A stretch of 49,841 bases of DNA, from the NCBI GenBank assembly GCA_964442905.1, contig CAYUBD010000001.1, positions 1 to 49,841 of the forward strand, given 5' to 3'. The first letter of the stretch is position 1. Every line of letters starts with the position of its first letter. Origin of the DNA: an uncultured archaeon. Lineage in GTDB: Archaea; Aenigmatarchaeota; Aenigmatarchaeia; QMZP01; JAFGSV01. The position numbers and the translations under genes were made by a program. The notes beneath the pieces were generated by a model. That model did not search any database, was not told the DNA's origin, and saw nothing but the letters and a program-made list of their open reading frames with translations. This document shows positions 8,633-47,506 of this stretch, one piece after another.

Positions 8633-8653
8633 TACCCATGAACAATAGTTCAT

Positions 8654-12120: not shown

Positions 12121-12196
12121 AAATATATATTGAAAAGTTTCTTAATATTTGCAACGTTTCCATGTCTTTAAAAATGTTGGCATCATTCTATCCGTC

Positions 12197-22018: not shown

Positions 22019-22019
22019 A

Positions 22020-24270: not shown

Positions 24271-24278
24271 AATATCAC

Positions 24279-28748: not shown

Positions 28749-29029
28749 GCCCTCTCCTCCAGGTATTTTGATATGAAGAGGGTGGTCACGAAAGCCAGCA
28801 TGGCATACACGATCGCAACATCCACGTATATGATTTCACCGAATGCAGCTCCGAGCAGCACGAAGGTAGCCACTGCAAGCGTATTTATGGTGTCGACGGC
28901 CACGACCCTGTCAGGTGCGGTCTTTCCAAGGAAAGCCCTGATTACGGCTACCATCATCAGAAGTACCAGTACGCCTGATACCAGCAGGAATTCGCTTCCC
29001 ATTATCATTCTGCTATCCTCCTCGCCCAT
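28745..29029 (-). CDS. mbhB: Membrane-bound hydrogenase subunit MbhB (MrpF-like)
   Basis: Three-TM small protein in the collinear position. Confidence 0.7.
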   Translation of the reverse strand: MGEEDSRMIMGSEFLLVSGVLVLLMMVAVIRAFLGKTAPDRVVAVDTINTLAVATFVLLGAAFGEIIYVDVAIVYAMLAFVTTLFISKYLEERA

Positions 29030-29520
29030 TTGATGAACGAGCCGCAGACTTCCTCTGGCTTCGGTGTCTTGCTGTCAAGGTGTATGCAGTGCACATAAAT
29101 GTTGTTCTTCTCGTCGACATCAACTGACAGCGTCCCAGGTGTAAGCGTTATGGAATTTGCAAGAAGAGCTACTCCAAAATCGTTTCTGAGCCCGGTTGGA
29201 ACCTTTACAATTCCTGGCCTTATTCTTCCTGTAATTACCCTATATGCCACGTCAATATTCGCCTTGGCCATGCTGAAGAATAGTGGCCCGACAGCATAAA
29301 TCACGAACTTTGCTATTCGTGCAGGGCTGATGAATCCAATGGCTGATTTGACATGCACGCCCTTCAGCATCTTCCTTACCACAACAGCAGTAAAAAAGGA
29401 AAAAACCAGACCGGTTGCCGCTTCACTCGTGCTCCAGAAAAGGATGTCTGTGCCTGACCCTGCAGTAAGAGCCAGATAGAATATCAGCGAAAAAACGAAT
29501 GAGACAACCAAAACTGCCAT
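29005..29520 (-). CDS. mbhA: Membrane-bound hydrogenase subunit MbhA (MrpE-like)
   Basis: MrpE-like protein and first gene of the array. The start is set at the ATG at 29520 (MAVLVVSF); the track ORF uses an upstream TTG that would overlap the FTR-like gene. Confidence 0.7.
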   Translation of the reverse strand: MAVLVVSFVFSLIFYLALTAGSGTDILFWSTSEAATGLVFSFFTAVVVRKMLKGVHVKSAIGFISPARIAKFVIYAVGPLFFSMAKANIDVAYRVITGRIRPGIVKVPTGLRNDFGVALLANSITLTPGTLSVDVDEKNNIYVHCIHLDSKTPKPEEVCGSFIKWARRIAE

Positions 29521-29564
29521 ACAGATTATTGTATCGCGGTTATTATATTTATTCGAGTTAGACG

Positions 29565-29828
29565 CTATTTCACAAAAAGGTTGCAATGGCAGTGACCCAT
29601 TTCATTTATCTCGTCCTTGTGGTAGATGCACGGGCAGATTATCTTTTTGTCCACTTCCTTGTTTCCTGTGACCATCCTGCACGGGCAGTATCTGGCTCCG
29701 TGCTTCTTCTCGTTCGCAAGAAGACCATTGCAGAGACCCTCGACTATTTTATCATTGGGATTAAGTTTGAATCCCTGGCTTTCAGCATATTTGGCATATG
29801 TCTTCTTCATCTGTTCTTTCTCATCCAT
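29565..29828 (-). CDS. Ferredoxin:thioredoxin reductase catalytic-subunit-like protein (FTRc/FDR family)
   Basis: Diagnostic CPC ... CPC ... CHC spacing ('YCPCRM', 'ICPCIYH', 'GHCHCNLF'). Confidence 0.8.
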   Translation of the reverse strand: MDEKEQMKKTYAKYAESQGFKLNPNDKIVEGLCNGLLANEKKHGARYCPCRMVTGNKEVDKKIICPCIYHKDEINEMGHCHCNLFVK

Positions 29829-30103: not shown

Positions 30104-30484
30104 TCATTTCACTCCGTCAAGAACAAAACATGCTTCATAGACTACTTCTATACCATGCTCTTTGCAGAAAACCACGGCCTTCCTGGATTCGGAACCTGGC
30201 TGCATCCATATCCTGCCGATTCCAAGGCGCTTACATTCCTTTACTATCTTCTCCGTTACTTTTGGTTTGACTACAACTAGAACGATGTCAGGTTTTTCAG
30301 GAAGCGATTCGATGTCAGGAAAACACGGCTCACCATCTATCTGACTCTGCTTGGGATTCACAGGGAAAACAGTGAATCCATCTTTCCTGAGCTGTCTGAA
30401 TATCTTGTAACCCCATTTCTCAGGATTTCTTGAAGCACCTACAAGTGCAATTATATTATCCTTTTTCAGAAAATCACTGTTCAT
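30104..30484 (-). CDS. CoA-binding domain protein (YccU-like)
   Basis: 'IALVGASRNPEKWGY ... VFPVNP ... DIVLVVV' Rossmann-like CoA-binding signature. Confidence 0.75.
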   Translation of the reverse strand: MNSDFLKKDNIIALVGASRNPEKWGYKIFRQLRKDGFTVFPVNPKQSQIDGEPCFPDIESLPEKPDIVLVVVKPKVTEKIVKECKRLGIGRIWMQPGSESRKAVVFCKEHGIEVVYEACFVLDGVK

Positions 30485-30527
30485 GCAGCACCATCTCATA
30501 TTTTACTTGATATTCCTGCCATGCCAT

Positions 30528-30848
30528 TCAACCACCAAAAATCCGCTTGATTAAAGATTTCCTCAGGCCAAGAAGGTTTTCTATATCCTTTCTGAGGTTT
30601 TCTTCACTGGGTACACCGACTATCCTTTTGACAACTTTGCTGTCATCATCCACGAAGATCATGGCCGGTGTAGCATTTACATCATAGCTCAGTGCCAGAC
30701 TTTTTCCTTCGTTTCCCTTTGTCTTGATCCTTGTAAGAGTCAGTCCGTGCTCATAATATTCTGGTGCTACGCTGTTCGCGACCTTCTCTGCCTTCGGGCA
30801 GTGCGGACAGTTTGATGAAACAAAAAGCAACAACTTCATGACTTTCAC
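30528..30848 (-). CDS. Glutaredoxin-like/thioredoxin-fold protein (CPHC active site)
   Basis: 'LLLFVSSNCPHCPKAEKV' and the cis-Pro region 'ATPAMIF'. Its start overlaps the upstream thioredoxin stop by 4 nt. Confidence 0.7.
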   Translation of the reverse strand: MKVMKLLLFVSSNCPHCPKAEKVANSVAPEYYEHGLTLTRIKTKGNEGKSLALSYDVNATPAMIFVDDDSKVVKRIVGVPSEENLRKDIENLLGLRKSLIKRIFGG

Positions 30849-31186
30849 AAGTGCTTTTCAAGCCATTCCTTTACCATGTGCTGTGGCATGCTGCCGATGA
30901 AGTCTGCAACGACCTTCCCGTCCTTGAACATCATGACTGCAGGTATGCTGCTGACGTTGTATTTCCGGGCGTTTTCGGTGCTCTCATCGACGTTGACCTT
31001 TGCCAGTATGAACTTCCCGTCATATTCCTCTGAAAGCAATGTCAGTATCGGACTCAGGATGTTGCATGGCCCGCACCAAGGTGCCCAGAAATCGATAACA
31101 ACAGGAACTTTCTGCGACTGGTCTATAACCTTCTCCTGGAATTCGCTGTCAGAAACCTCGATTGTGTTTTTCATAAATTCCTCCAA
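30845..31186 (-). CDS. trxA: Thioredoxin (WCGPC)
   Basis: 'VVIDFWAPWCGPCNIL ... SIPAVMMFKDG'. Confidence 0.9.
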   Translation of the reverse strand: MEEFMKNTIEVSDSEFQEKVIDQSQKVPVVIDFWAPWCGPCNILSPILTLLSEEYDGKFILAKVNVDESTENARKYNVSSIPAVMMFKDGKVVADFIGSMPQHMVKEWLEKHL

Positions 31187-33968: not shown

Positions 33969-34424
33969 TTAAACCCACCTTCTGACTTTCTTCCTGTAAT
34001 CCAGATATTTCTTCCCGAAGGCCTTCTCAAGGTTCTTATCCTCGTCACCTATAAATATGTATTTCATCATTGCCACGAAAGCAAAGGGGAAAATGAACGT
34101 GAGAAGTGATCCGAGAAGCACGGATTCCCCGAGCAGTATCATGAACATTCCCAGGTACATGGGATGCCTACTTATCCTGAATACGCCTGAGACAACGAGC
34201 TTTGAGGGCATTAGGTGGGGCTTCACGGTCGTGGAATTCTTCTTGAACGCCATGTCAGCCTGGATGTTGAGCATGATGCCTATAATTATCAGCAGCGTAC
34301 CGGCATAGGAAACGGGCGCTTCTATCACTGCAACTGAAGGCAAAAGTAAATGCACGACTGCTGACACCGCAAGAAGCATGAGGAAGTAGTTGGTCGGCAT
34401 TATTCTGTTCAGTTTCATACCCAT
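33969..34424 (-). CDS. ICMT/PEMT-family membrane methyltransferase-like protein
   Basis: 'GVFRISRHPMYLG' and the C-terminal 'E...L...FG..Y..Y...V' motif. Confidence 0.65.
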   Translation of the reverse strand: MGMKLNRIMPTNYFLMLLAVSAVVHLLLPSVAVIEAPVSYAGTLLIIIGIMLNIQADMAFKKNSTTVKPHLMPSKLVVSGVFRISRHPMYLGMFMILLGESVLLGSLLTFIFPFAFVAMMKYIFIGDEDKNLEKAFGKKYLDYRKKVRRWV

Positions 34425-35830
34425 CCCAAAAGCATGGCTATCCCGAGAAGCACTATTATCGACCCTGCCACAAGGTGCAGGTACTTTATGTTATTGTCCT
34501 TCCATCCTGAGACGTTCTCGACTTCCCTGACACCGAGATATACGACTATGGTTATAGCAGCCATCGGGAGAACGAATATAAGGTTGTAAAGCAGCAGAAG
34601 CGGTATCGTCTGCAGAAGGTCCATGGCTGACAATATGCCACCGGCTATCACGTAAGGACCTATTGTGCATGGAAGAAGGAATATAGTCACGAAAGCGCCC
34701 ACTACGAATGCTCCGGCAGGGGATGTTATCTGGCCTATGACCTTCTTGAGCCTGGGCCTCATGAACATGGGCATCTCGGTCATCAGGCCGCCTGGCTTGT
34801 ACCAGAAGAAATCCTTGAGGTTCAGTATCCCCAGTATGATTGCGGCGAATCCGAGTATCTTGTAGAGCGTCAGCCTCACATATGTTATGGCCTGTATGAG
34901 CTGGAAGAACTTTATTATGACAAGACCGTAGATTATGTACATCACGAAGACGGAAACCGTGAAGGCTATTCCGGCAAGCAGGATGTTCCTCTTCTTCTCA
35001 GGGTTGTAAGTGAGTATCGATATGAGCATGAGCGTAAGCACGGCCAGCGCGCACGGATTGACGGCATCCACTGCAGCCAGCGACAGCAGCTTCACGAGTG
35101 TGATATCCACAGGGCTTTCGCTCATTTCAGCATGGGTGATGTTGTCACACGGATGGTCTACTGTATGGTTCGTCTCTACGCATTCACCGTTCCACTCAAG
35201 CTTTGTGTTCCCGATTATCAGGGCATGCTGAAAATCCACACTGCTTCCCGAAAGAGGTACTGGCTCTGCGACATCGAGAGAGAAATCCTCACCTTCGACA
35301 ATCTTTGTGATGTCTTCCTCTGTGAGGAGCGCCCTCATTACCGAATCATCAGAACCACTGCCGGGAACGAGAATCCTGTCCTTCGTCCATATCTTGGGTT
35401 TTCCCGGAAGCGATGAGATGTCAAGTTCTTCGATGGCGACGTTCCTCCCGTCTAAAAGCGGACATCCACTCTTTCCAAGATTCCCCATGAAAGCCTCGGC
35501 GTTCTGTATTATTGGAATGTCCCCTATGAGCGCGTTGTCACTATCGAATATCAGAAGGGGCACACCCATGCCAGAGCCGTATACCTCATCATAGCTGTAA
35601 AGCAATGGAGCGTTCTCCCCAATCTGATAAAGCTCATACTCTATGATTACGAGTTCAGGGTGGCTGACAAGAAGGTCGTTCAGTACAAATGGGTCTGCAT
35701 TGGCACAATGCGGGCAACCTATGCCTGTGAAATAGACCGCGCATATGCTTTTATCAGCCTGCGCACTTGCCTGCGGGACCGCGAGAGCAATCAAAGCCAA
35801 TATTACCAGAAATGTTATTGCATTTTTCAT
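34415..35830 (-). CDS. Extracytoplasmic thioredoxin-like domain fused to a CcdA/DsbD-type thiol-disulfide transmembrane transporter
   Basis: Signal peptide; 'GIGCPHCANADP' in the N-terminal domain; a C-terminal 6-TM region with 'VNPCALAVL' and 'LLPCTIGPY'. Confidence 0.75.
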   Translation of the reverse strand: MKNAITFLVILALIALAVPQASAQADKSICAVYFTGIGCPHCANADPFVLNDLLVSHPELVIIEYELYQIGENAPLLYSYDEVYGSGMGVPLLIFDSDNALIGDIPIIQNAEAFMGNLGKSGCPLLDGRNVAIEELDISSLPGKPKIWTKDRILVPGSGSDDSVMRALLTEEDITKIVEGEDFSLDVAEPVPLSGSSVDFQHALIIGNTKLEWNGECVETNHTVDHPCDNITHAEMSESPVDITLVKLLSLAAVDAVNPCALAVLTLMLISILTYNPEKKRNILLAGIAFTVSVFVMYIIYGLVIIKFFQLIQAITYVRLTLYKILGFAAIILGILNLKDFFWYKPGGLMTEMPMFMRPRLKKVIGQITSPAGAFVVGAFVTIFLLPCTIGPYVIAGGILSAMDLLQTIPLLLLYNLIFVLPMAAITIVVYLGVREVENVSGWKDNNIKYLHLVAGSIIVLLGIAMLLGWV

Positions 35831-35910: not shown

Positions 35911-36237
35911 TTACAATCTTCCTCTTCCCTGACCGCCGCCGCCCCGGCCTTGACCTCTGCCGTCCCGGGGTCCTATACCGAGACCTTTTCCCCCGCCGGA
36001 TCCCATACCTCTGCCACGGCCGTATCCCTGGCTAAATTTAGTGTCCGTATCCTTATTGCCGGTTCCAGTATCATCAAGCATGAGAGCTCCTGTGGGGCAT
36101 GCATTTGCAGCATCATGCAGGCATCCTGCCTTTTCATTACTTATTCTCGCCTTTCCCCCGGACATTTCTATTCCTTCCGGGCAGACGCCCGCGCAGGCTC
36201 CGCAACCCGCACACCTTGCTTCGTCTATTCTTACCAT
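35911..36237 (-). CDS. Mono-cluster ferredoxin fused to a Gly/Arg-rich tail
   Basis: 'CAGCGACAGVCP ... C...ANACP' has the same Cys pattern as the 55-aa ferredoxin. It is followed by 'GYGRGRGMGSGGGKGLGIGPRDGRGQGRGGGGQGRGRL'. Confidence 0.8.
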   Translation of the reverse strand: MVRIDEARCAGCGACAGVCPEGIEMSGGKARISNEKAGCLHDAANACPTGALMLDDTGTGNKDTDTKFSQGYGRGRGMGSGGGKGLGIGPRDGRGQGRGGGGQGRGRL

Positions 36238-36238
36238 C

Positions 36239-36541
36239 TTAAACCTTCCACCCTTCCTGCGCCAGTTTCATGAATCTTGCCTTTTCCTTCTCATCCATTT
36301 CGGTCATTTTTACCTCAATCTCTACATTCCTGTCCAGCTTCCTTATGTATTCCTTTACAAGTTTGATGAGACCTTCCTTAATCGGGATATTCAGGAACGG
36401 AAGCGCCAACGTAAGAGTAACTTTATCCTTTCCGATGCTTATATTTCTTATCATCCCGAGCTTCACAAGGCTGTAACTTATCTCCGGATGCATGGCCTTT
36501 GATAGTGCACCTTCAACATCTTCTTTTGAGATTTGTTCCAT
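36239..36541 (-). CDS. DUF59 (MIP18/SufT-like) Fe-S assembly domain protein
   Basis: 'V..AL..V.DPE(I)...LV.LGMI' core ('ALSKAMHPEISYSLVKLGMI'). The start is set at the ATG at 36541, and its stop abuts the next gene's ATG. Confidence 0.7.
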   Translation of the reverse strand: MEQISKEDVEGALSKAMHPEISYSLVKLGMIRNISIGKDKVTLTLALPFLNIPIKEGLIKLVKEYIRKLDRNVEIEVKMTEMDEKEKARFMKLAQEGWKV

Positions 36542-36554
36542 ATCAGTCCCTCTT

Positions 36555-36914
36555 TTATCCATCGGCCGCATTCTCCATAAGACTTTCAATTCTTTCTATA
36601 CTCTTTTCTGCAACTTTTATTTCTTTGTTGAAATGCCTTTTCATCCTTTCGAGAAAAGCTTTCTTTTCCTCTTTAGTATTAAAATTTTCCATAAGCTTCT
36701 TGGTTTTTTTCAGATTCTCTTCCACTTCTTGTGGAATCTTTTCACTATCATGCTCTACTGCTCCTTGAGGACATGCATCATGGCATTTTCCGCATCTAAT
36801 GCATTTTTCCATGTCTATTTCAGCCTTTCCTTCTTCCAGGCTGATAGCTCCTGATGGACACATTTTGACGCAAATTCCGCAACCAGTGCATCTCTCTTTA
36901 TCAATCCATGGCAT
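36555..36914 (-). CDS. 2x[4Fe-4S] ferredoxin with a charged helical C-terminal tail
   Basis: 'CTGCGICVKMCP' and 'CIRCGKCHDACP', then about 65 aa rich in K/E that are predicted to be helical. GAGGTG SD upstream. Confidence 0.8.
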   Translation of the reverse strand: MPWIDKERCTGCGICVKMCPSGAISLEEGKAEIDMEKCIRCGKCHDACPQGAVEHDSEKIPQEVEENLKKTKKLMENFNTKEEKKAFLERMKRHFNKEIKVAEKSIERIESLMENAADG

Positions 36915-36985
36915 TTCAACACCTCGATTTTTTAATTCCGTGTTAAATCATTTTATATAATTTCAATACTTAATAATTTTACCCA

Positions 36986-37372
36986 TTATCTCTTGCGCTT
37001 TGGTACAGGATCTCTTATCACGGTTTCCGGGTCAGTCGTGGAGAGGAAAACGTTCTTTGTCATTTTGAGAGCACCCGTAGGGCATATGTCCTGGCACAGG
37101 CCGCAGAAGCAGCATTTGCCAAGGTCAATCTTCGGGTAGGTTTTCTTGTATTTATCCTTATATTTTTTTGGCAATTCTACCATTTCTATGGCTTTATTCG
37201 GACATATCCTGGCGCAAAGCCCGCAGGACACGCACTTGTTTATGTCGTAGTCATGCTCTCCCCTGTATCCTTCGGCTATGTGTATAGATTCCGCGGGAAA
37301 CCTAACCGTAATCGGTCTTCTGAACATGTTCTTAATAACCTCTGATAACATTCCGAATTTCATTTTCTTCAC
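36986..37372 (-). CDS. NuoI/MbhN-like 2x[4Fe-4S] subunit
   Basis: 'CVSCGLCARICP' and 'CCFCGLCQDICP'. ATGA overlap with the upstream gene. Confidence 0.8.
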   Translation of the reverse strand: MKKMKFGMLSEVIKNMFRRPITVRFPAESIHIAEGYRGEHDYDINKCVSCGLCARICPNKAIEMVELPKKYKDKYKKTYPKIDLGKCCFCGLCQDICPTGALKMTKNVFLSTTDPETVIRDPVPKRKR

Positions 37373-38472
37373 CTATCCATATCTGCCGGGCATGGATTCA
37401 AGCTCCAGTAAATAGCCGGCACGTCTGCAATCTGGCTGCCTACCAGCAGATGCTCGAGAACCGGTATCATATGCAAAAATGACGGTCCCCTTATCTTGCA
37501 TCTGTAGGGACTCCCGGTTCCGTCTCCGACCATATACACGCCTGCCTCTCCTCTTGCAATCTCATTCCTTATGTATACTTCCCCCTTTGGAATCTTGGCA
37601 GCCAATTCGGGCTTCAGCGAAGGCTCTCTCACTTTCCCTCCGGGCAATTCATTCAGAGCCTGCCTTACGATTTTCATCGACTGCTCGATTTCCCTTATCC
37701 CGATAACATATCTGGAGTACGAGTCTCCTTCATTCATAATCGGGACATCAAAATCAAACTGGTCATATACTTCATACGGATCGTCGAGTCTCACATCGGT
37801 CTTCATACCGCTTGCCCTCAGGACAGGTCCGGTCGCGCCCAATCTCACAGCATCTTTCAGTTTTAGCACACCGATACCCTTCATTCTTGAGAGCAGAGCG
37901 GGGTTTTCGAGCTTTTCCAGCATCTTCATTCTGTCTACCTTATCCAGAACCTTTAGTATTCTTTCTCTGGCTCTGTCAGGCAAGTCCCTTCTTACCCCTC
38001 CCGGGCATATGTAGCCTGCGGGATAGACCCTTCCCCCGGTGACGGACTCGAAGATATCCAGTATGTAGTCCCTGTAGCCGAATGCCAGCTTGAACCCCGT
38101 ATCGAAGCCGGTGCCCATTGACATAGCGCCATACCAGATGATATGAGATTGTATCCTGGACAGCTCTGCCATTATGACCCTTATGTATTTCGCCCTTTCC
38201 GGAATCACTGTTCCAGTCAGCTCGTCCACAGCTTCTGCATGTGCCAGGTTCCATGCAAGCGGCTCCAGTACACAGATCCTCTCAGATAACACCCCATTCA
38301 GCATAGGTGTCCTGCTTTCCATTAATTTCACAAAACCCCTGTGCAGATATCCCGGATCTGACTTGGCACCTGTGACATTTTCCCCGTTCACCTTCAGTTT
38401 TACGGAGAAATTTCCGGAGCCTGGATGGGCCGGTCCAAATGGAAGGTCGTAATCTTTTGACACTTCAATCAT
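37369..38472 (-). CDS. NuoD/[NiFe]-large-subunit-like protein lacking two of the four Ni-Fe cysteines
   Basis: Collinear with MbhL, but the motifs read 'RICVLEPLAW' and 'NPCPADMDR' and the protein ends there (no cleavable tail). Confidence 0.85.
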   Translation of the reverse strand: MIEVSKDYDLPFGPAHPGSGNFSVKLKVNGENVTGAKSDPGYLHRGFVKLMESRTPMLNGVLSERICVLEPLAWNLAHAEAVDELTGTVIPERAKYIRVIMAELSRIQSHIIWYGAMSMGTGFDTGFKLAFGYRDYILDIFESVTGGRVYPAGYICPGGVRRDLPDRARERILKVLDKVDRMKMLEKLENPALLSRMKGIGVLKLKDAVRLGATGPVLRASGMKTDVRLDDPYEVYDQFDFDVPIMNEGDSYSRYVIGIREIEQSMKIVRQALNELPGGKVREPSLKPELAAKIPKGEVYIRNEIARGEAGVYMVGDGTGSPYRCKIRGPSFLHMIPVLEHLLVGSQIADVPAIYWSLNPCPADMDR

Positions 38473-38987
38473 GCTTCCTCCTCCCAGTAAACTTTTTCTC
38501 TTTCGTTTTCCTTGTCATAATGCTCCTTTCTTACGTATGCTTTCCAGTCAAAGTCACGCCTGAATGGTGGGGGCCCTTTCCAGTTCTCCAGGAAGAGTTC
38601 TGACAGGTCGGGATTTCCGGTGAATTTCACTCCGAAAAGCTCGTGTGACTCCCTTTCGTGTATCTGGGCGTTCTTCCCCCATATCGTGCCGACAGAATCG
38701 ATGACAGGGTCCTTCCTACTTATCTTTGTCTTTATGGTAAGCGCCATTTTATCATCGTATGACCATAGATGGTATGCGATTACGTATTTCCCCTCTTTAA
38801 GTATATCCGTGACGGAAATTGCAGATAGGTGGTCAAATCCGAGACCTTTCACATGCTTGCACAGGCTCGGCAGCTTTGCCTTCGTGGTTTCCACCCAAAT
38901 CCTGCGCTCTTTTTGGACCCTCACGTCGGCTGAGAATTTTCTCCTTATCTTACCAGCCATTTCCTTCCCACTTATATTAGTGCTCAT
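38469..38987 (-). CDS. NuoC/MbhK-like subunit
   Basis: NuoC-like 'LSAISVTD ... HLWS ... ERE.HELFG' features. The start at 38987 forms ATGA with the upstream stop. Confidence 0.8.
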   Translation of the reverse strand: MSTNISGKEMAGKIRRKFSADVRVQKERRIWVETTKAKLPSLCKHVKGLGFDHLSAISVTDILKEGKYVIAYHLWSYDDKMALTIKTKISRKDPVIDSVGTIWGKNAQIHERESHELFGVKFTGNPDLSELFLENWKGPPPFRRDFDWKAYVRKEHYDKENEREKVYWEEEA

Positions 38988-39424
38988 TTGCTCTCCTTCC
39001 CGTTCATCTTTTCCACGTGTTCGACAATCTGGTGGATGGCATGGAATACTGCCTCGGGCCTCGGCGGACACCCGGGTATGTACATGTCCACAGGTATATG
39101 GTCCCCCACCCTTTTAACGGTATTGTAAGAATCCCAGTACATCCCACCGCTCATGGTGCATGAACCCATGGCTATAACAACTCTCGGCTCAGGCATCTGC
39201 TCATATATCCTTTTGGCTCTTTCCATGGACTTGAAGGTCTGGTATCCCGCGATGATCAGGCAGTCAGCGTGCCTGGGTGACCCGACCGGTATTATGCCGA
39301 ACCTCTCCATGTCCCACCTAGAGCCGACAACTGGCAGCAGTTCCGTGAAACCGCAGGAATTGAACCAGTTAAAAATCCATATGGATTTTACGAGCCGTTT
39401 TAGTTTTTTTGATTCTTCAGACAT
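38984..39424 (-). CDS. NuoB/MbhJ-like subunit with only three cluster cysteines
   Basis: 'NSCGFTELL' (compared with MbhJ 'GSCNGCDIE'), 'GSCTMSGG' and 'GCPPRPE'. Confidence 0.85.
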   Translation of the reverse strand: MSEESKKLKRLVKSIWIFNWFNSCGFTELLPVVGSRWDMERFGIIPVGSPRHADCLIIAGYQTFKSMERAKRIYEQMPEPRVVIAMGSCTMSGGMYWDSYNTVKRVGDHIPVDMYIPGCPPRPEAVFHAIHQIVEHVEKMNGKESK

Positions 39425-39447
39425 CTGTTCACCAATATTTCAAAATA

Positions 39448-39855
39448 TTATCCAAGATTCTTGTCCAGCCATTCCCGTACCAATGGCTCTCCCATGGCCC
39501 CAAGGAATTCATCGGCAACCTGACCGTTTTTGAACATCTTTACAGCCGGGATGCCTGTAATTCCATATTTTTGAGCAAGCTCCTGGTTTTCATTGACATC
39601 GACTTTTGCCAGAATGAATTTCCCTTTATAGTCATTGGCCAGCTTCTCCAGTATCGGGCCAAGTATAAGGCATGGAGAGCACCACACCGCCCAGAAATCA
39701 ACGACAACGGGAACCTTCTGCGACTGGTCTATAACCAGTTGCTGAAAGTTGTCAGCACCAACTTCGATTTTGGTTTCCATGTTCTTTTCCACTTTTGTTT
39801 TTTCAAGCATGTTCTCCATTTTCTCTTTTCTTATCCTGGCAAGCTCATCATCCAT
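39448..39855 (-). CDS. Thioredoxin paralogue (WCSPC) with an N-terminal helical extension
   Basis: 'VVVDFWAVWCSPCLIL ... GIPAVKMFKNG', roughly 60% identical by eye to the 30845-31186 thioredoxin. The start is set at the ATG at 39855. Confidence 0.85.
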   Translation of the reverse strand: MDDELARIRKEKMENMLEKTKVEKNMETKIEVGADNFQQLVIDQSQKVPVVVDFWAVWCSPCLILGPILEKLANDYKGKFILAKVDVNENQELAQKYGITGIPAVKMFKNGQVADEFLGAMGEPLVREWLDKNLG

Positions 39856-40754: not shown

Positions 40755-42050
40755 TTACTTCACAGACTCGCAGGCCGAGACAATCGCATCGGCAAATGGC
40801 AGTGGTGTCAGTTCCGGATGCGCAGCATAATTCACTTTGAGCAGGTCGCTGATTGTTGATTTTTTCTGGATAGCGAGAGAAATTACGTTAATAATTCCCG
40901 GCACGATGTGGCCAGAGCCTATAACCTGCGCCCCTATCACCTTCTTATCATCATCGAAAACCAGTTTTGTCGTCAATGGCTTCGCGTCAGGCTGGGTATC
41001 GTATTTGTCCAGCGTTTCGCTCGTTCCTACTTTGTAATTTATTTCCTCGACCTTTGCCTGCTCTTCCGTCAGTCCCACTCTTCCCAGGGAATGTCCGGCT
41101 ATCTCCGTTACGGTTGGGTTAAGCACTCCCTCAAATGCAGACTTCCTGCCGCATATGCTCATCCCTGCGACCTTTGCCTGCAGGACCACTGTGATTACCA
41201 GTCCGCTTTGCAGGGGATTCTTTGTCAGCATGGAAAACGTCTCGGCACAGTCGCCCACGGCGTAAACATTCTTGATGTTAGTCCTCATCCTTCTGTCTGT
41301 TTTTATGCCGAACTTCCCCACCTTTATCCCGCTTCTTTCCGCCAGACCCGTTTCGGCCCTTACCCCGGCCGTCATCAGAACGACATCGGCCTTTATGTCC
41401 ATGCCTCCTGCGTGAACGGCTTTGACTTTGCTGTCACCTATCAGCTTTTCGACAGGCTTACCCAATAATACATTTACTCCGTTTTTCGACAGCGCGTCCT
41501 CAATCTTTCCGGAGAATTCACGGTCAAATGAAGGAAGCAGATATGGCAGCATTTCGACCAGAGAAACCTTGAACTTATCCGACAGCAGAGCGGCCGTCTC
41601 CACGCCTATCATGCCTCCGCCGATTATAGCGATGTCATGCGAGGCTTTCAGCGCCTTGGATATCTTCATGGTGTCATCAGCTGTTCTTATCGTAAAGACA
41701 TTCTCCAGGCCTATGCCATCTATCGGGAGGAGAAACGGCTCCGCGCCGGTTGCAAAAACCAGATGGTCGTATCTGAAGCTTTCCTTTTTTGTCCTGACCG
41801 TCCTGCTTTTGACATCAACTGATAGGGCTTCATCATGTATCAGCCTGGCGCCCGTTCCTGTTATCATGGATTCAGGCTTTTTGCATTTCCCGAGGCTGTC
41901 AATGCCCGCAAGCACGTAGGGTGACGAGCACCGGATGAAAATGCTTTTCTCTTTACCTATAACGGTTATGTCAGCGTCTGGTCTGATCTTCTTGATCACA
42001 TGGGACGTGACAATTCCCCCGGCACCAGCTCCTATAATGACGACTTTCAT
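40755..42050 (-). CDS. FAD-dependent pyridine nucleotide-disulfide oxidoreductase (CoA-disulfide reductase / NAD(P)H sulfur reductase / NADH oxidase class)
   Basis: 'VIIGAGAGG' FAD motif, single redox Cys context 'FIRCSSPYVL', second dinucleotide motif 'IIGGGMIGVE', and 'AVGDC'. Confidence 0.85.
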   Translation of the reverse strand: MKVVIIGAGAGGIVTSHVIKKIRPDADITVIGKEKSIFIRCSSPYVLAGIDSLGKCKKPESMITGTGARLIHDEALSVDVKSRTVRTKKESFRYDHLVFATGAEPFLLPIDGIGLENVFTIRTADDTMKISKALKASHDIAIIGGGMIGVETAALLSDKFKVSLVEMLPYLLPSFDREFSGKIEDALSKNGVNVLLGKPVEKLIGDSKVKAVHAGGMDIKADVVLMTAGVRAETGLAERSGIKVGKFGIKTDRRMRTNIKNVYAVGDCAETFSMLTKNPLQSGLVITVVLQAKVAGMSICGRKSAFEGVLNPTVTEIAGHSLGRVGLTEEQAKVEEINYKVGTSETLDKYDTQPDAKPLTTKLVFDDDKKVIGAQVIGSGHIVPGIINVISLAIQKKSTISDLLKVNYAAHPELTPLPFADAIVSACESVK

Positions 42051-42102: not shown

Positions 42103-43005
42103 CTATTTAATGCTACCAGCTTCCTCAGTGACGTTCTTGAGTATATCCATGAAAATAGATTCGAATTTCTTTTCATAAACCACCACAGGCTTCCCGTTGA
42201 CAAGGGCATCCACGAATCTCCTGTCGTATGGTATTTTACCCAGAAGCTTGATACCCATGCTCTCCGCAAAGCGCTCTATCTTCCTGCTGAACTCCGGATT
42301 GAGGTCGAACTTGTTTATAACCAGTCCGCTCTTTATTCCGAAATGGCTCACTATCTTGAGCGCCCTCTTTACATCACTTAGGGCAGACGGCGTGGGCTCA
42401 GTGACGGCTATCACGTAATCAGATCCCATGACCGACGCTATCACCGGGCATCCTATACCAGCAGCCGCGTCTGTCAACATGATATCCGCCTTTTCGTCTG
42501 CCGCCAGGGATGAAGCCCTGTCCTTGACAATATATATGACCTTCCCTGAGCCCGACTCGCCCATCTTCAGCTGGCCGGTGACTAGAGGGAAGCCGTAAGG
42601 GCTCCTGCCGGTTCCTATCATGGCGTTCTTCACTTCCTCAAGCCTTATAGCTTTCTCCGGGCATATGAGCTCGCAGGCCCCGCATCCCTCGCAGAAAAGG
42701 CTCCTGAAGACCGGTATTTTCTTCTTCTCGTTCCAGCTTATGGCACCGAACGCGCATACATCCCTGCATTTCCCGCAACCTGTGCATCTCTTCTCGTCAA
42801 GCACTGCTTTCTTGTTCGTGGTTATATCTTCCCAGGAATCGTAGTCCTTTTCGTCCATACCCAGACTCAGTCCCAGATCCGGCGCATCGACGTCGCAGTC
42901 TGCCACGACTATCTTCTTCTCTTTTGCGAGAAGCACGGAAAGCGACGAGCTGAGCATGGACTTGCCGACCCCGCCCTTGCCTGAAACGACTGTTATCTTC
43001 TTCAT
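42103..43005 (-). CDS. MinD/ParA-superfamily P-loop ATPase with an inserted 2x[4Fe-4S] ferredoxin domain (COG1149 type)
   Basis: Deviant Walker A 'GKGGVGKS'. Insert with 'CTGCGKCRDVC' and 'CEGCGACELICP'. Confidence 0.85.
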   Translation of the reverse strand: MKKITVVSGKGGVGKSMLSSSLSVLLAKEKKIVVADCDVDAPDLGLSLGMDEKDYDSWEDITTNKKAVLDEKRCTGCGKCRDVCAFGAISWNEKKKIPVFRSLFCEGCGACELICPEKAIRLEEVKNAMIGTGRSPYGFPLVTGQLKMGESGSGKVIYIVKDRASSLAADEKADIMLTDAAAGIGCPVIASVMGSDYVIAVTEPTPSALSDVKRALKIVSHFGIKSGLVINKFDLNPEFSRKIERFAESMGIKLLGKIPYDRRFVDALVNGKPVVVYEKKFESIFMDILKNVTEEAGSIK

Positions 43006-43784
43006 AAGACAGGCCTCCTCATTTTGGTCTCAGTCATATCTATGGGCTTTGCGTCCGGTTTTTCAAGGTCATAGATGGATATCGCATTGAGCCCCTTTTT
43101 GATGAATATATCCGTTATCCCCCCAAGCTCACTTCCGGAGAGAGGCTTTGACGTGCTCGGCCTTAAGGGTGTGTCTATCTGCACCTCGTCAGGCTTTATG
43201 GACGCAGCGAGATCAGCCAGCTCATCCGCGAGCCCCCGGTTCTCCTCAATCAACATAATCTGCAGTGACAACTTCCCCTCGTATTCGCTCCTGAAAAGCC
43301 TGAGTGAGTTTATTATCTCGCCAAGCCTCAGGCCTTCAGCGGGCCTGTTTACCTTCATGAACGTCTCGTAATCCGGAGCGTCGAGTTTCGCGACCACGTG
43401 GCCTATCTTCTTCAGGTCTTTCCGGACATCGGGACGGGGCATCAGGGACGAGTTCGTCAGTATTGCAGTCGGGAGTCCGCTCATCTTCTTTGCGGTTTCC
43501 GCCAGCTCTCCCAGATTGGAAGCAAGCGTGGGCTCTGAATTGCCGGAGAATGTTATTATCTGCGGGTCAGTCTTCTTGAGCGCATCCTGCAGGTCCTTCT
43601 CGACAGCTTCCCTCTGCACGAAGACCTTCCTTTCGGTCATGTATGTGAGGGGGCCCAGAGACTGTAACTGGCAGTAGATGCAGTCGAAGCTGCAAATCCT
43701 GCTGCCGGGTGCGGAGCACACGGGGTCTATGCCTAGTGAAATCCCGAGCCTCCTTGAAGGCACGGGGCCGTAGACAGTCTTCAT
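43002..43784 (-). CDS. Small radical SAM enzyme
   Basis: 'YGPVPSRRLGISLGI' N-terminus and the 'CSFDCIYC' CxxxCxxC motif. ATGA overlaps on both sides. Confidence 0.85.
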   Translation of the reverse strand: MKTVYGPVPSRRLGISLGIDPVCSAPGSRICSFDCIYCQLQSLGPLTYMTERKVFVQREAVEKDLQDALKKTDPQIITFSGNSEPTLASNLGELAETAKKMSGLPTAILTNSSLMPRPDVRKDLKKIGHVVAKLDAPDYETFMKVNRPAEGLRLGEIINSLRLFRSEYEGKLSLQIMLIEENRGLADELADLAASIKPDEVQIDTPLRPSTSKPLSGSELGGITDIFIKKGLNAISIYDLEKPDAKPIDMTETKMRRPVL

Positions 43785-44443
43785 ATCTCAATCACGCTCC
43801 CGGCCTTTATCTCCCTGAAATTGTCCGGATACTTCTTTCGTATCTCGGCGGTATGCTGCGTGCAGTGACATGGTGAAAGCATCTCTATACCATCCAGCTT
43901 CCCGAAATCCGAGAAGCCGTGGAAGCCGCCCATTATCCAGTATATCTCTCCCATCTCACGCGCTTTCGTTATTATGTTTCCGACTCCGGGATGTGAGCAT
44001 CCCGCTATGACTATAAGGCCTTTCGGTGTCTTCAGCACGAGCGACTGCTCGTCGGGCAGGTCGCCGCCGCTTTCCAGCTCACCGGTCGTGTAGACGTTCT
44101 CCGTTATCCTTTCCTGCCCTCTTATCTCCTTTATCTTCGACCTTCCCCTGGCCGTGGCCTTCGTCTTCCCAGAGAAGGACGCAGGGATGAGCACCTCCGG
44201 GTTTTCCGTGTGCTTCAGCAGCTCATCCAGCCCGCCGGTGTGATCCCAGTGGTCGTGAGAAAGCACGATGATGTCTATGGATGCGGGGTCTATGCCCAGC
44301 TTCTCCATGTTCTCCATAAGGGGTTTTCCCTTATCACCGCAGTCGAAAAGTATCTTTTTGCCGTTCTCTATAAGGCATGAGAAACCCCATCCTGACCTGA
44401 GTCCCTCTTCAGCATTGTTGTCATACACAATTGTTATCTTCAT
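43781..44443 (-). CDS. Metallo-beta-lactamase-fold protein (COG1237 type)
   Basis: 'LSHDHWDH' metal motif and 'CSHPG'. The start at 44443 forms ATGA with the upstream stop. Confidence 0.8.
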   Translation of the reverse strand: MKITIVYDNNAEEGLRSGWGFSCLIENGKKILFDCGDKGKPLMENMEKLGIDPASIDIIVLSHDHWDHTGGLDELLKHTENPEVLIPASFSGKTKATARGRSKIKEIRGQERITENVYTTGELESGGDLPDEQSLVLKTPKGLIVIAGCSHPGVGNIITKAREMGEIYWIMGGFHGFSDFGKLDGIEMLSPCHCTQHTAEIRKKYPDNFREIKAGSVIEI

Positions 44444-45285
44444 TTCATCAGCCACCCCGCAAGCGCCTTTATGTTGGCATCCTTCACAGCTTCTCCTTTT
44501 GAATAGCTCTGCATGACGGATTTGCTGTATGGTATCCTTGCTATTATCTCGACGCCGTACTTTTTTGCAATCTTCTCTATGAGCTCAGGCTTTCCCACGT
44601 CCGACCTGTTGAGGATTATCTTGCCCGGAACGCCAAGCACCTTCATCAGCTTCAGTATCAGCTCAAGGTCGTGTGCTCCCAGCGGCGTGGGCTCTGTTAC
44701 AGCCAGCGCGATGTCGTTCTCCAGGAGCGCTGTTATCACGTCGCAGTGCGTGCCTGCGGCCGTGTCGGTTATGACGAAATCATAGTCGGGGCTTCTCGAT
44801 TTAACGATATCCTTGGCAGCTTCCACAACGAACTCCGAGACCGGCTCCCCGGGCTTCAGCTCCCCGCTTATCAGGTCAACACTGCCTTTACTTCCCTCAT
44901 AAACGGTGCCTATCTCCTTGTAGGTCTTTCCTATTGCGCCTGTCGGGCAGGCTATCATGCAGGCCCCGCAACCGCTGCACTGCTCGGGAACGAATATGGG
45001 ATATTTCCCTTTTATCTGAACGATGGAGTTCGTCGTGCATACTTCGGAACACCTTCCGCACTTCGTGCATTTGCTGAAATCCCACTTTGGTATGACCTGT
45101 TTCACAGTCTTTACCTTCCTTCTTCTTGTCGAAAGAATCAGATGGTCGTTCGGGCAGTCCACGTCAGCATCAAAAAGCAGCACCTTCCCGCGCTTTGAAA
45201 GCTCAGCTGCCAGTGCAGTGGCTACCGTTGACTTTCCGGTGCCTCCCTTCCCGCCGGTTACAGCTATCTTCAAAGTTATCACCAT
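44440..45285 (-). CDS. MinD/ParA-superfamily P-loop ATPase with an inserted ferredoxin domain (second copy)
   Basis: 'GGKGGTGKS'. Insert with 'CTKCGRCSEVC' and 'CSGCGACMIACP'. Confidence 0.85.
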   Translation of the reverse strand: MVITLKIAVTGGKGGTGKSTVATALAAELSKRGKVLLFDADVDCPNDHLILSTRRRKVKTVKQVIPKWDFSKCTKCGRCSEVCTTNSIVQIKGKYPIFVPEQCSGCGACMIACPTGAIGKTYKEIGTVYEGSKGSVDLISGELKPGEPVSEFVVEAAKDIVKSRSPDYDFVITDTAAGTHCDVITALLENDIALAVTEPTPLGAHDLELILKLMKVLGVPGKIILNRSDVGKPELIEKIAKKYGVEIIARIPYSKSVMQSYSKGEAVKDANIKALAGWLMK

Positions 45286-45343
45286 TCATGGACCCGACAC
45301 GTTCCGAAGAATAGAAAATCCCGGACAGCCGGCAGAAACTTCA

Positions 45344-45673
45344 TCAGCGCCCGCAGTTTCCCTCAAGGTCTTTAAGCCTGTCAAAATTACTGACAACTTC
45401 CCTAACGGTCCTGAACGTGCCTGTCTTCAGCTTTATTCCCATTTTGCCGCACAGCTCAATCGCCCTCATGCCCATTTCGAACGTGTATATGGCATCCACG
45501 TCGAGGCCTTCGAGAGCCACGACAGGCGAGCATCCCTGCGTGGGCTTGACTTCCACTACATCAAGCTTCTTCCGGGAAGAATCGTATACCGCCATGAGCT
45601 GCACGTGACCGAAATGGGGATGCACCTTGGAATCCATTCCCTTGTTCTCTATCAAAGCCATTGCTATTTTCAT
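45344..45673 (-). CDS. NifX/NifB-C-terminal-domain-like protein (COG1433 type)
   Basis: 'MKIAMAL ... HFGHVQLMAVYD ...' matches the dinitrogenase FeMo-cofactor-biosynthesis-domain pattern. Confidence 0.75.
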   Translation of the reverse strand: MKIAMALIENKGMDSKVHPHFGHVQLMAVYDSSRKKLDVVEVKPTQGCSPVVALEGLDVDAIYTFEMGMRAIELCGKMGIKLKTGTFRTVREVVSNFDRLKDLEGNCGR

Positions 45674-45698
45674 TCACAACACCTTTTTATCCTGAAAA

Positions 45699-46145
45699 TC
45701 ACTGCTGCCACCGTCTGCCTCTGCCGGCACCTGTTCCGCCGCCTCTTCCGCTTCCCATGCCGGATCCGAAACCTCCGGGCATGCCTATTCCCATCACGCC
45801 GGGAGCATTAACCTTTGTAAGCTTTCCCTGCATGAACTGCATGACGTTTTCCTCAACTGTTCCTGCGGTTCCGGCGTATGCTTCTATCCCGACCTGCTGG
45901 AAGACTCCGAATGCTCTGGGACCGACCGCGCCTGATATGACTGCCTTGACGCCCTCATTCCCGACCGTCTGGGCGGCCATTATGCCTGCGCCGCCGCCCT
46001 GCATTGCCGCGCCGTTCTGGACATCCTTGTGACCGGTTATCTTCTTGCCGTCTGTCTCTACTATGACAAACCATGGGCACCTTCCGAAAACCGGACTTGT
46101 CTGGCTTTTCAGTCCCTGCCCTGTCGAACTTACTGCTATCTTCAT
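45699..46145 (-). CDS. IssA-like protein: NifX/NifB-family domain with a Gly/Arg-rich C-terminal tail
   Basis: 'MKIAVSSTG ... VFGRCPWFVIVE ...' domain plus the tail 'GMPGGFGSGMGSGRGGGTGAGRGRRWQQ'. This is the same architecture as the P. furiosus thioferrate storage protein IssA. Confidence 0.75.
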   Translation of the reverse strand: MKIAVSSTGQGLKSQTSPVFGRCPWFVIVETDGKKITGHKDVQNGAAMQGGGAGIMAAQTVGNEGVKAVISGAVGPRAFGVFQQVGIEAYAGTAGTVEENVMQFMQGKLTKVNAPGVMGIGMPGGFGSGMGSGRGGGTGAGRGRRWQQ

Positions 46146-46195
46146 ATTATTACCTCCAAAATTTTCTGTTTGAATAGATTTCTTTTACTCCTTTA

Positions 46196-46519
46196 TTACC
46201 TTTTAGTGAATCTTCTTGCTGTCTCGGCTGCGTCAGTCTCCTCAGGTACCACATCATTTCTTTTCCAGGGATATGGGCCTTTTGCCTGGAGTGGCCTGAC
46301 CGTGACAAGTGTCCCCAGACCATCATCAAAATTTTCCTCTATGTACCTTTTTAGCTTAGGCCCTCTTTCTCCGGGCGGGGCATCTCTAATATATGATGGC
46401 AGTTCAAGGCTGTATATCATATCATCCGAAGAAACTACCAGCAGATATTCTGCTTTGCTGAGATGCGCTGCCCTGTAAAGTTCACCGTCTTTGTATGAAA
46501 CGATTGCTGCTTTTTTCAT
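46196..46519 (-). CDS. Hypothetical protein (107 aa) inside the cluster
   Basis: ORF. Its N-terminus 'MKKAAIVSYKDG...AAHLSKAEYLLVVSSDD' faintly resembles the first strands of the NifX-like fold. Confidence 0.5.
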   Translation of the reverse strand: MKKAAIVSYKDGELYRAAHLSKAEYLLVVSSDDMIYSLELPSYIRDAPPGERGPKLKRYIEENFDDGLGTLVTVRPLQAKGPYPWKRNDVVPEETDAAETARRFTKR

Positions 46520-46563
46520 TTTTCACCCTAGATATTTCACCGTTCAAATCCACTTCAATGCTA

Positions 46564-46974
46564 TTATTTCTCCTTTTTGATTTCAGCTATTCTCTTTTCT
46601 ATCGATTCCATCTCCTGCCTGATTGCTTCCAGTTCCTGTTTCAGCATATTTTTCTCCTGCTCCAGGGACTGGCTTTCCTGCTCCTTTGTCGGCTGTGCAA
46701 AAGGGTATGCTGGCTGCTGTACTGGCTGAACCGGCACGGTTTGTGTCTGTACCGGGTAACCTGCTCCGGCCCTGTACCATCCAGGCTGTCCAGTGGTCCT
46801 TGCCCAGAACCTGTTTCCCCTTCCTCGTCCGAATGCTGCCGCTCCTCTTCCGGCAAAACCACGTCCGAATCCGGCATTTGCGAATCCTGGAGCCTGGAAA
46901 CCGCTGCAGTAACCCATTCCTCTTCCTGTCATCGAACCCATTCCCATAGGTCCTGTTCCGTCTCCTGCTGGCAT
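46564..46974 (-). CDS. DUF5320-type protein (GRG-rich N-terminal half, C-terminal coiled coil)
   Basis: 'MPAGDGTGPMGMGSMTGRGMGYC ... FGRGFAGRG ... GRGRGNR', then 'LKQELEAIRQEMESIEKRIAEIKKEK'. Confidence 0.75.
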   Translation of the reverse strand: MPAGDGTGPMGMGSMTGRGMGYCSGFQAPGFANAGFGRGFAGRGAAAFGRGRGNRFWARTTGQPGWYRAGAGYPVQTQTVPVQPVQQPAYPFAQPTKEQESQSLEQEKNMLKQELEAIRQEMESIEKRIAEIKKEK

Positions 46975-47001
46975 ATCAACACCTCCTATTCAATTTTAAC
47001 A

Positions 47002-47436
47002 TCAAGCCCTTCCCATGGGCGTTCCGCACTTCGGGCATTTCTGCTGGAAGCATGGCATTCCTCTCTCGTGTGCTGCGATCTCCCCGCACTTCGGGCAGAC
47101 GCAATTACCACCGGGGCCGAGCCCCTGTCCTCCTTTGAGTCCTTTTCCCATCATGTAATCACCTCCTCCTATACGCAGGGCTTTCCCTTTTATCAGTGAT
47201 TCCGCTATCTTCTTCCTTGCGGAAGCGAGCACCCTGTGAAACGTTGGCCTTGAAACATGCATCTTCTTTGCGCATTCCTCCTGCTCGAGACCCTCATAAT
47301 CCTTGAGCCTTACAGCCTCTATTTCCTCCACGCTGAGAGCGTTCTCTTCAAGCTCCCTCATGGGTATGCCTGATGGCTTGAAGTATGTCACATCAGGTTC
47401 CCTCTGGACCATCCTGGTCTTTTTCGGCCTTACCAT
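47002..47436 (-). CDS. DUF134/UPF0251 predicted DNA-binding protein with a C-terminal zinc ribbon
   Basis: 'MVRPKKTRMV...P.VTYFKP.G ... LSVEEIEAVRLKDYEGLEQEECAKKMHVSRPTFHRVL' (sigma-70 region-4-like HTH) and the C-terminal 'CPKC ... CPKC'. The start is set at the ATG at 47436. Confidence 0.8.
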   Translation of the reverse strand: MVRPKKTRMVQREPDVTYFKPSGIPMRELEENALSVEEIEAVRLKDYEGLEQEECAKKMHVSRPTFHRVLASARKKIAESLIKGKALRIGGGDYMMGKGLKGGQGLGPGGNCVCPKCGEIAAHERGMPCFQQKCPKCGTPMGRA

Positions 47437-47506
47437 TATGAACATATGTCCATAATGATTTAAAAAGTTTACGGTGGATGGGCTTTGTTTAAGCATGCTT
47501 TCGCAG

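Follow-up and report, generated by a model that had tools for sequence, protein, structure and literature searches.

The 49,841-nt window analysed here (contig CAYUBD010000001.1 of assembly GCA_964442905.1, from an uncultured archaeon of the Aenigmatarchaeota) carries eight small genes arranged head to tail on the minus strand (35911-39855). Four of these form a B-C-D-I cassette (36986-39424) whose products are homologues of the complex I subunits NuoB, NuoC, NuoD and NuoI and of the J, K, L and N subunits of the membrane-bound sulfane reductase MBS (formerly Mbx) of Pyrococcus furiosus. The cassette begins with a NuoB/MbsJ-like small subunit of 146 aa (38984-39424; Pfam Oxidored_q6, E 1.7e-25), followed by a NuoC/MbsK-like subunit (38469-38987; Pfam Complex1_30kDa, E 9e-26) that is 172 aa long when counted from the ATG overlapping the B-like stop, a NuoD/MbsL-like large subunit of 367 aa (37369-38472; Complex1_49kDa) and a NuoI/MbsN-like 2x[4Fe-4S] subunit (36986-37363; Pfam Fer4 and Fer4_7). 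A thioredoxin with a WCSPC motif (39448-39855; Pfam Thioredoxin; TIGR01068, 99 bits, above the cut-off) is encoded 23 nt upstream of the B-like gene. Downstream of the cassette lie a 2x[4Fe-4S] ferredoxin with a helical C-terminal extension (36555-36914; Pfam Fer4), which is a candidate electron donor, a DUF59/FeS_assembly_P protein (36239-36589; PF01883, E 2e-11) and a ferredoxin with a Gly/Arg-rich tail (35911-36237; Pfam Fer4), homologues of which are present in 10 related loci. These Pfam and NCBIfam matches bear out the initial annotation, which had recognised both the four NuoB/C/D/I-type genes and the thioredoxin, ferredoxin, DUF59 and Gly/Arg-tailed ferredoxin genes around them.

Analysis of the gene junctions confirmed two of the three ATGA overlaps that had been proposed, at 38984-38987 (B/C) and 38469-38472 (C/D). 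The third, at 37369-37372, reads GTGA, and alignment of homologues favours the ATG at 37363 (MKFGML...) as the I-like start, with the GTG at 37372 as an alternative; a start at 37363 leaves a 5-nt spacer after the NuoD-like stop and therefore no overlap. Comparison with the closest relative of the cassette (locus L007, 87% identity) gave dN/dS values of 0.07-0.12 at dS 0.5-1.0 for the four genes, as low as those of neighbouring genes, which shows that the cassette is under strong purifying selection and, as had been claimed from its intact reading frames, is not decaying.

The sole membrane arm in the window belongs to a complete mbhA-N operon on the same strand, 7.4 kb downstream of the cassette (21641-29586). 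As read from open reading frames and motifs, its 14 genes encode a true [NiFe] group-4 membrane-bound hydrogenase (MBH) with an Mrp-type arm, MbhI and MbhM, and each arm subunit is single-copy by tblastn. Searches of the whole window by tblastn found no NuoH/MbhM-like or antiporter-like gene adjoining the cassette, in agreement with the initial annotation. Prediction likewise found no transmembrane helix in the B-, C-, D- or I-like proteins. This too had been noted earlier, as a point in favour of a soluble enzyme, but we rejected it as evidence of solubility because MbhJKLN are equally devoid of transmembrane helices.

Comparison with known structures was made by sequence searches against solved structures. 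For the D-like protein an AlphaFold2 model based on a 14-sequence family alignment was poor, with a mean pLDDT of 59, and was left unused for fold searches, in favour of the sequence searches. The best match of the D-like protein was MbsL (6u8y_L, E 4.8e-87), followed by Thermus thermophilus Nqo4 (3e-73) and P. furiosus MbhL (4e-47). The B-like protein matched MbsJ best (6u8y_J, E 2e-39, in a gap-free alignment), as the C-like protein did 6u8y_K (E 3.5e-13), and 6u8y_N was the best complex-I-type match of the I-like protein (E 3.6e-26). In a neighbour-joining (NJ) tree, built like the MbhM tree discussed below without support values, the D-like family grouped with MbsL and away from MbhL.

The residues of the active site show the same relationship. 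The D-like protein reads RICVLEPLAW ... NPCPADMDR and stops there, compared with RICVPEP...CPPDIDR in MbsL, so that in both proteins each former CxxC pair has lost its second Cys and two of the four [NiFe] Cys remain (the equivalents of MbsL C85 and C385). In the D-like protein these positions are C67-V-L-E70 and C361-P-A-D364, the chain ends at R367 without a C-terminal maturation tail, N21 aligns with MbhL E21, the Glu of proton reduction that MBS lacks as well, and 14 family members all share C67, E70, C361 and D364. By contrast, the window MbhL reads RICGICNICH ... DPCMSCTNR, with both CxxC pairs followed by a 34-aa tail, and together with the window MbhJ it carries all MBH features (four Ni-Fe Cys, E21, tail and four-Cys cluster). 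Alignment thus upheld the earlier description of the large subunit as a CxxE...CxxD protein lacking the tail of its hydrogenase paralogue.

The B-like protein has three conserved proximal-cluster Cys, in NSCGFTE, MGSCTMSGG and IPGCPPRPE, which align with the MbsJ ligands C28 (NSCGFTE), C93 (GSCT) and C123 (PGCPP), and its proximal [4Fe-4S] cluster is accordingly predicted to be ligated by these three Cys only. The cluster loop has the length found in MbsJ and is 3-4 residues shorter than in MbhJ (a four-residue gap with MAFFT). The initial annotation had correctly recognised the three conserved Cys, but its Cys-to-Thr change depends on a doubtful register, since the gap-free alignment places an Asn at MbsJ C25, which is not a ligand. 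Across the family the first motif is WFNSCGFxE, where x is Thr in the window but Cys in some of the arm-less and some of the arm-linked members; in these C-G-F-C variants, the additional Cys could restore a fourth cluster ligand.

A large subunit of the CxxE/CxxD type and a three-Cys proximal cluster are the features that define the catalytic site of MBS, and in P. furiosus the three-Cys cluster itself reduces polysulfide (PMC7684303). Given the agreement of both the structure matches (MbsL, J, K and N) and the diagnostic residues, the four genes very probably encode an MBS-like, hydrogenase-dead peripheral arm (referred to here as a head), and the resemblance to MBS proposed earlier is well founded. 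Judged from its residues, the cassette product cannot be a hydrogenase, because it lacks Ni-Fe ligands 2 and 4, E21 and the C-terminal tail and has a three-Cys rather than a four-Cys cluster.

The likeness to MBS (PDB 6U8Y; PMC7684303) thus extends over a four-subunit J/K/L/N head, chain by chain, with the shortened cluster loop, and a ferredoxin is predicted by analogy as electron donor. A gene for an NSR- or CoA-disulfide reductase-like flavoprotein near the cassette adds to this likeness. In P. furiosus, nsr and mbx share the same S0 response. The differences from MBS are also substantial. Identity ranges from 42% (L) to roughly 55% (J), and the window B-like protein lacks the equivalent of MbsJ C25. 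MBS has a nine-subunit arm with an MbsM anchor and both MbsH and MbsH', in contrast to the window cassette, which has no arm genes in its operon, and to its relatives, whose arms are of Mbh type, with one antiporter-like MbhH plus MbhI. The family belongs to lineages of mesophiles from sediments (DPANN, Thermoplasmatota, Asgard and bacterial-labelled genomes) rather than to Thermococcales. With MBH of group 4d (PDB 6CFW, and the window copy) the cassette shares a paralogous J/K/L/N set at 28-42% identity, ferredoxin as donor and, in its relatives, arms close to those of true MBH, in or beside whose operons the cassette repeatedly occurs; it differs in the Ni-Fe ligands, E21, endopeptidase tail and cluster ligation already described. 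The Ehr complexes, an umbrella class of group-4-like complexes lacking Ni-Fe ligands (PMC6349859), also resemble the family in their large subunit and in the Mrp-antiporter-like subunits of its arm-linked members. Ehr is, however, a loose class, whereas the cassette family has specific MbsL/MbsJ signatures and Mbh-type arms.

Searches of a protein collection with the D-like protein gave 6424 matches at E <= 1e-20. The best 120 of these were 71-100% identical and, if named at all, almost always called "NADH-quinone oxidoreductase subunit D". A scan of one genome per species found 80 loci at 58-87% identity. Hosts include Thermoplasmata/Thermoplasmatales, Altiarchaeota, Aenigmatarchaeota, Iainarchaeum and Heimdallarchaeota (two closed genomes), and metagenome-assembled genomes (MAGs) labelled Dehalococcoidia, Atribacterota, Thermotogae and Saccharibacteria. 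The taxonomy of the locus set is that of the MAG records, several of which (Saccharibacteria, Dehalococcoidia, Atribacterota) may be wrong and were not relied on, and the presence of the family in bacteria is only apparent. The labels in question concern L044, L080, L081 and L084-86 (Saccharibacteria) and L013, L020, L026 and others (Dehalococcoidia); the "Dehalococcoidia" contig L001/L013, whose label looks unreliable, encodes ERCC4- and KTI12-like genes.

We examined the context of the cassette in 86 loci holding the family, onto which the window proteins were mapped by tblastn. In about one quarter of these loci the cassette lies inside an Mbh-type operon, and cassettes 58-78% identical to that of the window are embedded in Mbh-type arm operons in at least 27 related loci. 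As the sole head, the cassette follows the arm in the order mbhA-B-C-D-E-F-G-H-I-M-B-C-D-I (L016, L033, L044, L080, L081, L084-86) or precedes MbhM in the order A..I-B-C-D-I-M (L040, L043, L048, L050, L055). A further group (L045, L047, L052-54, L056, and L124 from a metagenome scan described below) has one A-H set followed by two complete I-M-head units, of which one carries the cassette and the other a true hydrogenase; an MBS-like head and a [NiFe] hydrogenase head apparently make use of a single Mrp-like module here. The gene order in these two-head operons is mbhA-H, then MbhI, B-C-D-I and MbhM, then MbhI, MbhJ-K-L, MbhM and MbhN. L051 has two full complexes side by side. In L026 (8000-11443) and L020 (1-5520), reading of the open reading frames placed the cassette between mbhK and mbhL, both intact, in an otherwise normal mbh operon that encodes only one MbhI and one MbhM; the same insertion was found in L140, L147 and L127 in the metagenome scan. 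In L020, a putative hydrogenase maturation protease gene, assigned from its sequence, follows mbhN. The cassette is convergent to a head-less arm operon in L082 and lies a few kb upstream of mbhA in the window and in L007.

All arms adjacent to members of the family are of Mbh/Mrp type (MnhE, MrpF, PhaG, MbhD, MbhE, MnhB, one antiporter-like subunit, MbhI and MbhM). The MbhM subunits cluster by lineage rather than by head type in the NJ tree, and the window MbhM shares 59% identity with those that serve B-C-D-I heads (L016, L033, L043). In addition, the NJ tree of D-like proteins placed the window and L007 next to the arm-linked L016, L033 and L044, with the arm-less state arising several times.

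Arms lacking a head were also found. A metagenome scan was carried out with an alignment of MbhM subunits (12 from cassette operons and one from the convergent arm operon of L082) and yielded 80 loci. In about 25 of these an a-b-c-d-e-f-g-H-i-M operon is present and genes for a head are lacking over distances of up to 10 kb; the contig of one such operon is 561 kb long. Ten-gene arms of this kind (mbhA-I plus M) include L087, L100, L132, L167 and L169-L172. The MbhM proteins of the head-less operons form one clade in the NJ tree, their close homologues are named Thermoplasmatota, and the operons occupy a conserved housekeeping neighbourhood (PolD, ThyX, the arm, an archaeosortase-like gene, phosphatidylserine decarboxylase and Trm1). 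One Thermoplasmatales MAG, CAZWZY01, combines the two: contig 8 carries a head-less arm, and contig 15 (L015) a cassette without an arm. We considered this genome as proof of pairing and downgraded it: the arm may serve a separate MbhJKLN, as the published attribution of such arms discussed below also implies, and the binning of a MAG can err.

Taken together, these arrangements suggest that the arm-less cassette is the head of a split or arm-sharing membrane complex rather than a new soluble enzyme, an interpretation to which we assign a probability of roughly 60%. The head itself probably docks on an Mbh-type membrane arm. We propose that the I-like subunit would receive electrons at its two clusters from reduced ferredoxin, plausibly one of those co-encoded, and hand them on to the site-differentiated proximal cluster at the B/D interface, where the S-S bond of a sulfane-sulfur substrate would be cleaved reductively, as in P. 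furiosus MBS. The head would be anchored through MbhM/MbhI-type subunits to an Mbh/Mrp-type ion-translocating arm encoded elsewhere, thereby coupling sulfur reduction to Na+/H+ translocation. This arm could be that of the mbh operon 7.4 kb downstream, for which the cassette product would compete with MbhJKLN, or one encoded by a head-less operon beyond the window.

By analogy with MBS, sulfane sulfur has about an even chance of being the substrate, the candidates being polysulfide and the per- or polysulfides of organic compounds, of CoA or of proteins. A sulfane-sulfur function is supported by three features of the gene neighbourhoods. First, a CoA-disulfide reductase/NSR-like flavoprotein of 431 aa with a single active-site Cys region (IRCSSPY) is encoded 0.9 kb upstream of the eight genes on the minus strand (40755-42050; Pyr_redox_2, Pyr_redox_dim); its best NCBIfam match is CoA-disulfide reductase, below the cut-off. 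Second, genes for TusA, YeeE, rhodanese and DsrE flank the cassette in L003/L004. Third, L051 has between its B- and D-like genes a 635-aa fusion (8041-9948) of a NuoC-like protein to a GltD/SudA/NfnB-like module (Fer4_20 + Pyr_redox_2). The same locus has a thioredoxin-reductase-like gene with a CATC motif after the I-like gene (11688-12584), which suggests that the head of this lineage carries a pyridine-nucleotide or thiol module. In 14 related loci a flavoprotein of the Pyr_redox_2 type is also encoded no more than 10 kb from the cassette; we rejected the treatment of this neighbour cluster as one "CoADR-like" family, as it mixes CoA-disulfide reductase-like, GltD/SudA-like and thioredoxin reductase-like flavoproteins.

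Several observations weigh against the assignment of the cassette to a membrane-bound sulfur reductase. The window cassette has no arm gene within 7 kb, and the mbh arm, the sole one in the window, comes with a complete head of its own. In at least 24 related loci the cassette is flanked on either side by 4 kb or more of sequence free of arm genes; these include contigs of more than 100 kb and two closed Heimdallarchaeum genomes (inspected over +/-10 kb around the cassette). When the head of P. furiosus MBS is isolated as the JKLN subcomplex (C-MBS), it is soluble and acts on dimethyltrisulfide (PMC7684303). A published study assigns the head-less arms of Thermoplasmatota to true MbhJKLN heads whose genes lie apart (PMC9585477). 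Finally, the D-like protein is about as similar to Nqo4 (42-43% identity) as to MbsL (42%), which makes the substrate an extrapolation.

Some of these observations also fit the main alternative, a naturally soluble four-subunit ferredoxin-dependent reductase that acts on sulfane sulfur, persulfides, disulfides or thioredoxin in the cytoplasm and no longer takes part in ion pumping, which we regard as possible though doubtful. Such an enzyme would account for the lack of adjacent arm genes in the window, in L007 and in the loci with long arm-free flanks, for the strong purifying selection acting in the arm-less state, and for neighbours such as the thioredoxin, ferredoxins, NSR-like flavoprotein and a DsbD-like protein. 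The last is a 471-aa membrane protein (34415-35830, minus strand; weak Pfam DsbD_2) with about nine hydrophobic segments, comprising a signal or transmembrane segment, an N-terminal, extracytoplasmic thioredoxin-like CPHC domain and a DsbD/CcdA-like transmembrane region. Its counterpart in L007 (3559-4983) starts 29 nt beyond the end of the I-like gene at 3530, so that it may be co-transcribed with the head. Independent function of heads and arms has, in addition, been claimed for the MBH of Thermoprofundales (PMC9585477).

Comparison of 21 arm-linked with 22-23 arm-less sequences argues against this alternative. No positions were fixed differently between the two groups in D, B or I, and conservation of the arm-less heads is not relaxed, with 185 of 367 D positions conserved at 90% or more, versus 175 of 367 in arm-linked heads. 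The beta1-beta2 loop FGPAHPGSGNF, one of the three loops that join head and membrane subunit in MBS, MBH and complex I (PMC7684303), is invariant in the 14-sequence alignment and nearly so in the family whether or not an arm is nearby, the arm-linked L047 and L051 having a single substitution each. The N-terminal helix of the I-like subunit is kept in arm-less heads to the same extent as in arm-linked homologues. The recurrence of the arm-less state within arm-linked clades of the NJ tree, and the existence of head-less arms that need a head, also speak against a free soluble enzyme.

The accessory genes, too, give no evidence of solubility. A thioredoxin homologue lies upstream of nine of nine mbhA..I-M-B-C-D-I operons and of no A..I-B-C-D-I-M operon, and homologues of the ferredoxin encoded at 36555-36914 (69% identical) are upstream of the membrane-linked operons of L016 and L033. 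DUF59 homologues adjoin the cassette or its arm in L033, L080, L009, L019 and L042. The window set of thioredoxin, ferredoxin, DUF59 protein and Gly/Arg-tailed ferredoxin corresponds to the genes that precede the arm in L033 and L016, and the window therefore resembles an L033-type operon minus its ten arm genes. The initial annotation had proposed, from the lack of adjacent membrane genes and from the association with these very genes, that the cassette could encode a soluble system, one that could not be named. Its analogy with MBS stands, but neither step to a new soluble system follows, given that the same genes precede membrane-linked operons in the nearest clade and that so many relatives are embedded in Mbh-type arm operons. 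At the level of the family, what was found is largely a complex of known kind that has been split, an outcome close to the one that the initial annotation had itself named as refuting its proposal.

The closest described case of such splitting is the MBH of Thermoprofundales subgroup E, for which Zhang et al. 2022 reported head genes apart from a ten-gene mbhABCDEFGHIM operon, proposed that heads and arms function independently and called the split unique to that subgroup (PMC9585477). The head-less arm operons that we found in Thermoplasmatota match this description. The separate heads there are described as true MbhJKLN with conserved catalytic residues (PMC9585477), in contrast to the hydrogenase-dead, MBS-like head of the window, which is encoded in an Aenigmatarchaeota-like genome and coexists with an unsplit mbh operon. 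The MCM helicase of the window shares 85% identity with that of a Candidatus Aenigmatarchaeota MAG, which points to a DPANN archaeon as the probable host. The head-less arms may thus serve JKLN, the cassette, or both. A literature search found no description of the family as MBS-like, of two-head operons, of cassette insertion in mbh operons or of arm-less cassettes, for which MBS, the Ehr concept and the split MBH are the nearest precedents.

A more specific proposal, which we advance only tentatively and consider unlikely, is that the heads are interchangeable, such that one Mbh/Mrp arm would be used in competition or by turns by the MBS-like head of the cassette and by [NiFe] MbhJKLN. This would allow the ferredoxin-driven ion pump to be switched between protons and a sulfur or thiol acceptor with no duplication of the ten arm genes, and the window, the two-head operons and the insertions between mbhK and mbhL would be different states of one system. 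A bolder variant would have the co-encoded thioredoxin or a protein or CoA persulfide as acceptor, making the complex an ion-translocating ferredoxin:thiol reductase.

Far less probable is that the cassette encodes the Q-module of a quinone- or methanophenazine-reducing enzyme of the complex I, Fpo or NDH-1 type, with its NuoAHJKLMN genes at another site. Fold family and subunit set agree with this, the names in public databases are NuoB, NuoC, NuoD and NuoI, the D-like protein passes the NCBIfam NuoD model NF004739 (376 bits, cut-off 360), the B-like protein also passes NuoB subfamily models, and identity to Nqo4 (43%) equals that to MbsL. Furthermore, Chloroflexi have been reported with nuoBCDI separate from the remaining nuo genes (PMC7117926). 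However, the quinone ligands are replaced, Nqo4 H38 aligning with G20 and Y87 with V68 of the D-like protein, and MBS lacks this His and Tyr as well; the B-like protein reads SCG, hence Cys-Gly, where NuoB has tandem Cys-Cys; and two hydrogenase-derived Cys are kept as in MbsL. None of the 86 family loci has a NuoA/J/K/L/M/N-type arm adjoining the cassette. A non-functional remnant left by deletion of the arm genes from an L033-type operon, as the L033/L016-like gene order might suggest, is hardly credible in view of the four intact frames with coupled starts, the low dN/dS and the retention of all cluster ligands.

MBS has been treated as a link between hydrogenases and complex I and characterised in Thermococcales only; the present family, mislabelled NuoBCDI in databases, takes its catalytic signature to DPANN, Thermoplasmatota, Altiarchaeota, Asgard and bacterial-labelled sediment genomes. 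Its head genes behave as a movable four-gene cassette, found with an arm of their own, with an arm shared with a hydrogenase, inside an mbh operon, or alone. Should heads exchange on a common arm, or work free of it, they would provide direct present-day evidence for the modular assembly invoked in models of complex I evolution. In that case the "NuoBCDI" of sediment archaea would also be read, in metabolic reconstructions, as ferredoxin-dependent sulfur reduction and not as NADH dehydrogenase or hydrogenase.

Two further groups of genes in the window were observed near the mbh operon and upstream of the cassette. A gene resembling the catalytic subunit of ferredoxin:thioredoxin reductase (29565-29828, minus strand; PF02943, E 6e-25) overlaps the start of mbhA and holds the same position in the closest relative (L007, 6681-7004). 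Just upstream of it in the window are genes for a CoA-binding protein (30104-30499), a thioredoxin-fold CPHC protein (30528-30848) and a second thioredoxin (30845-31186). On the other side of the cassette, a conserved cluster of Fe-S-related genes on the minus strand (42103-47547) is shared with the cassette neighbourhood in L005/L006. It encodes a DUF134 regulator-like protein (47002-47547), a Nitro_FeMo-Co/NifX-like protein (45699-46145), two CbiA/MinD-type ATPases with inserted Fer4 domains (44440-45285 and 42103-43005), an MBL-fold protein (43781-44455) and a radical SAM protein (43002-43784).

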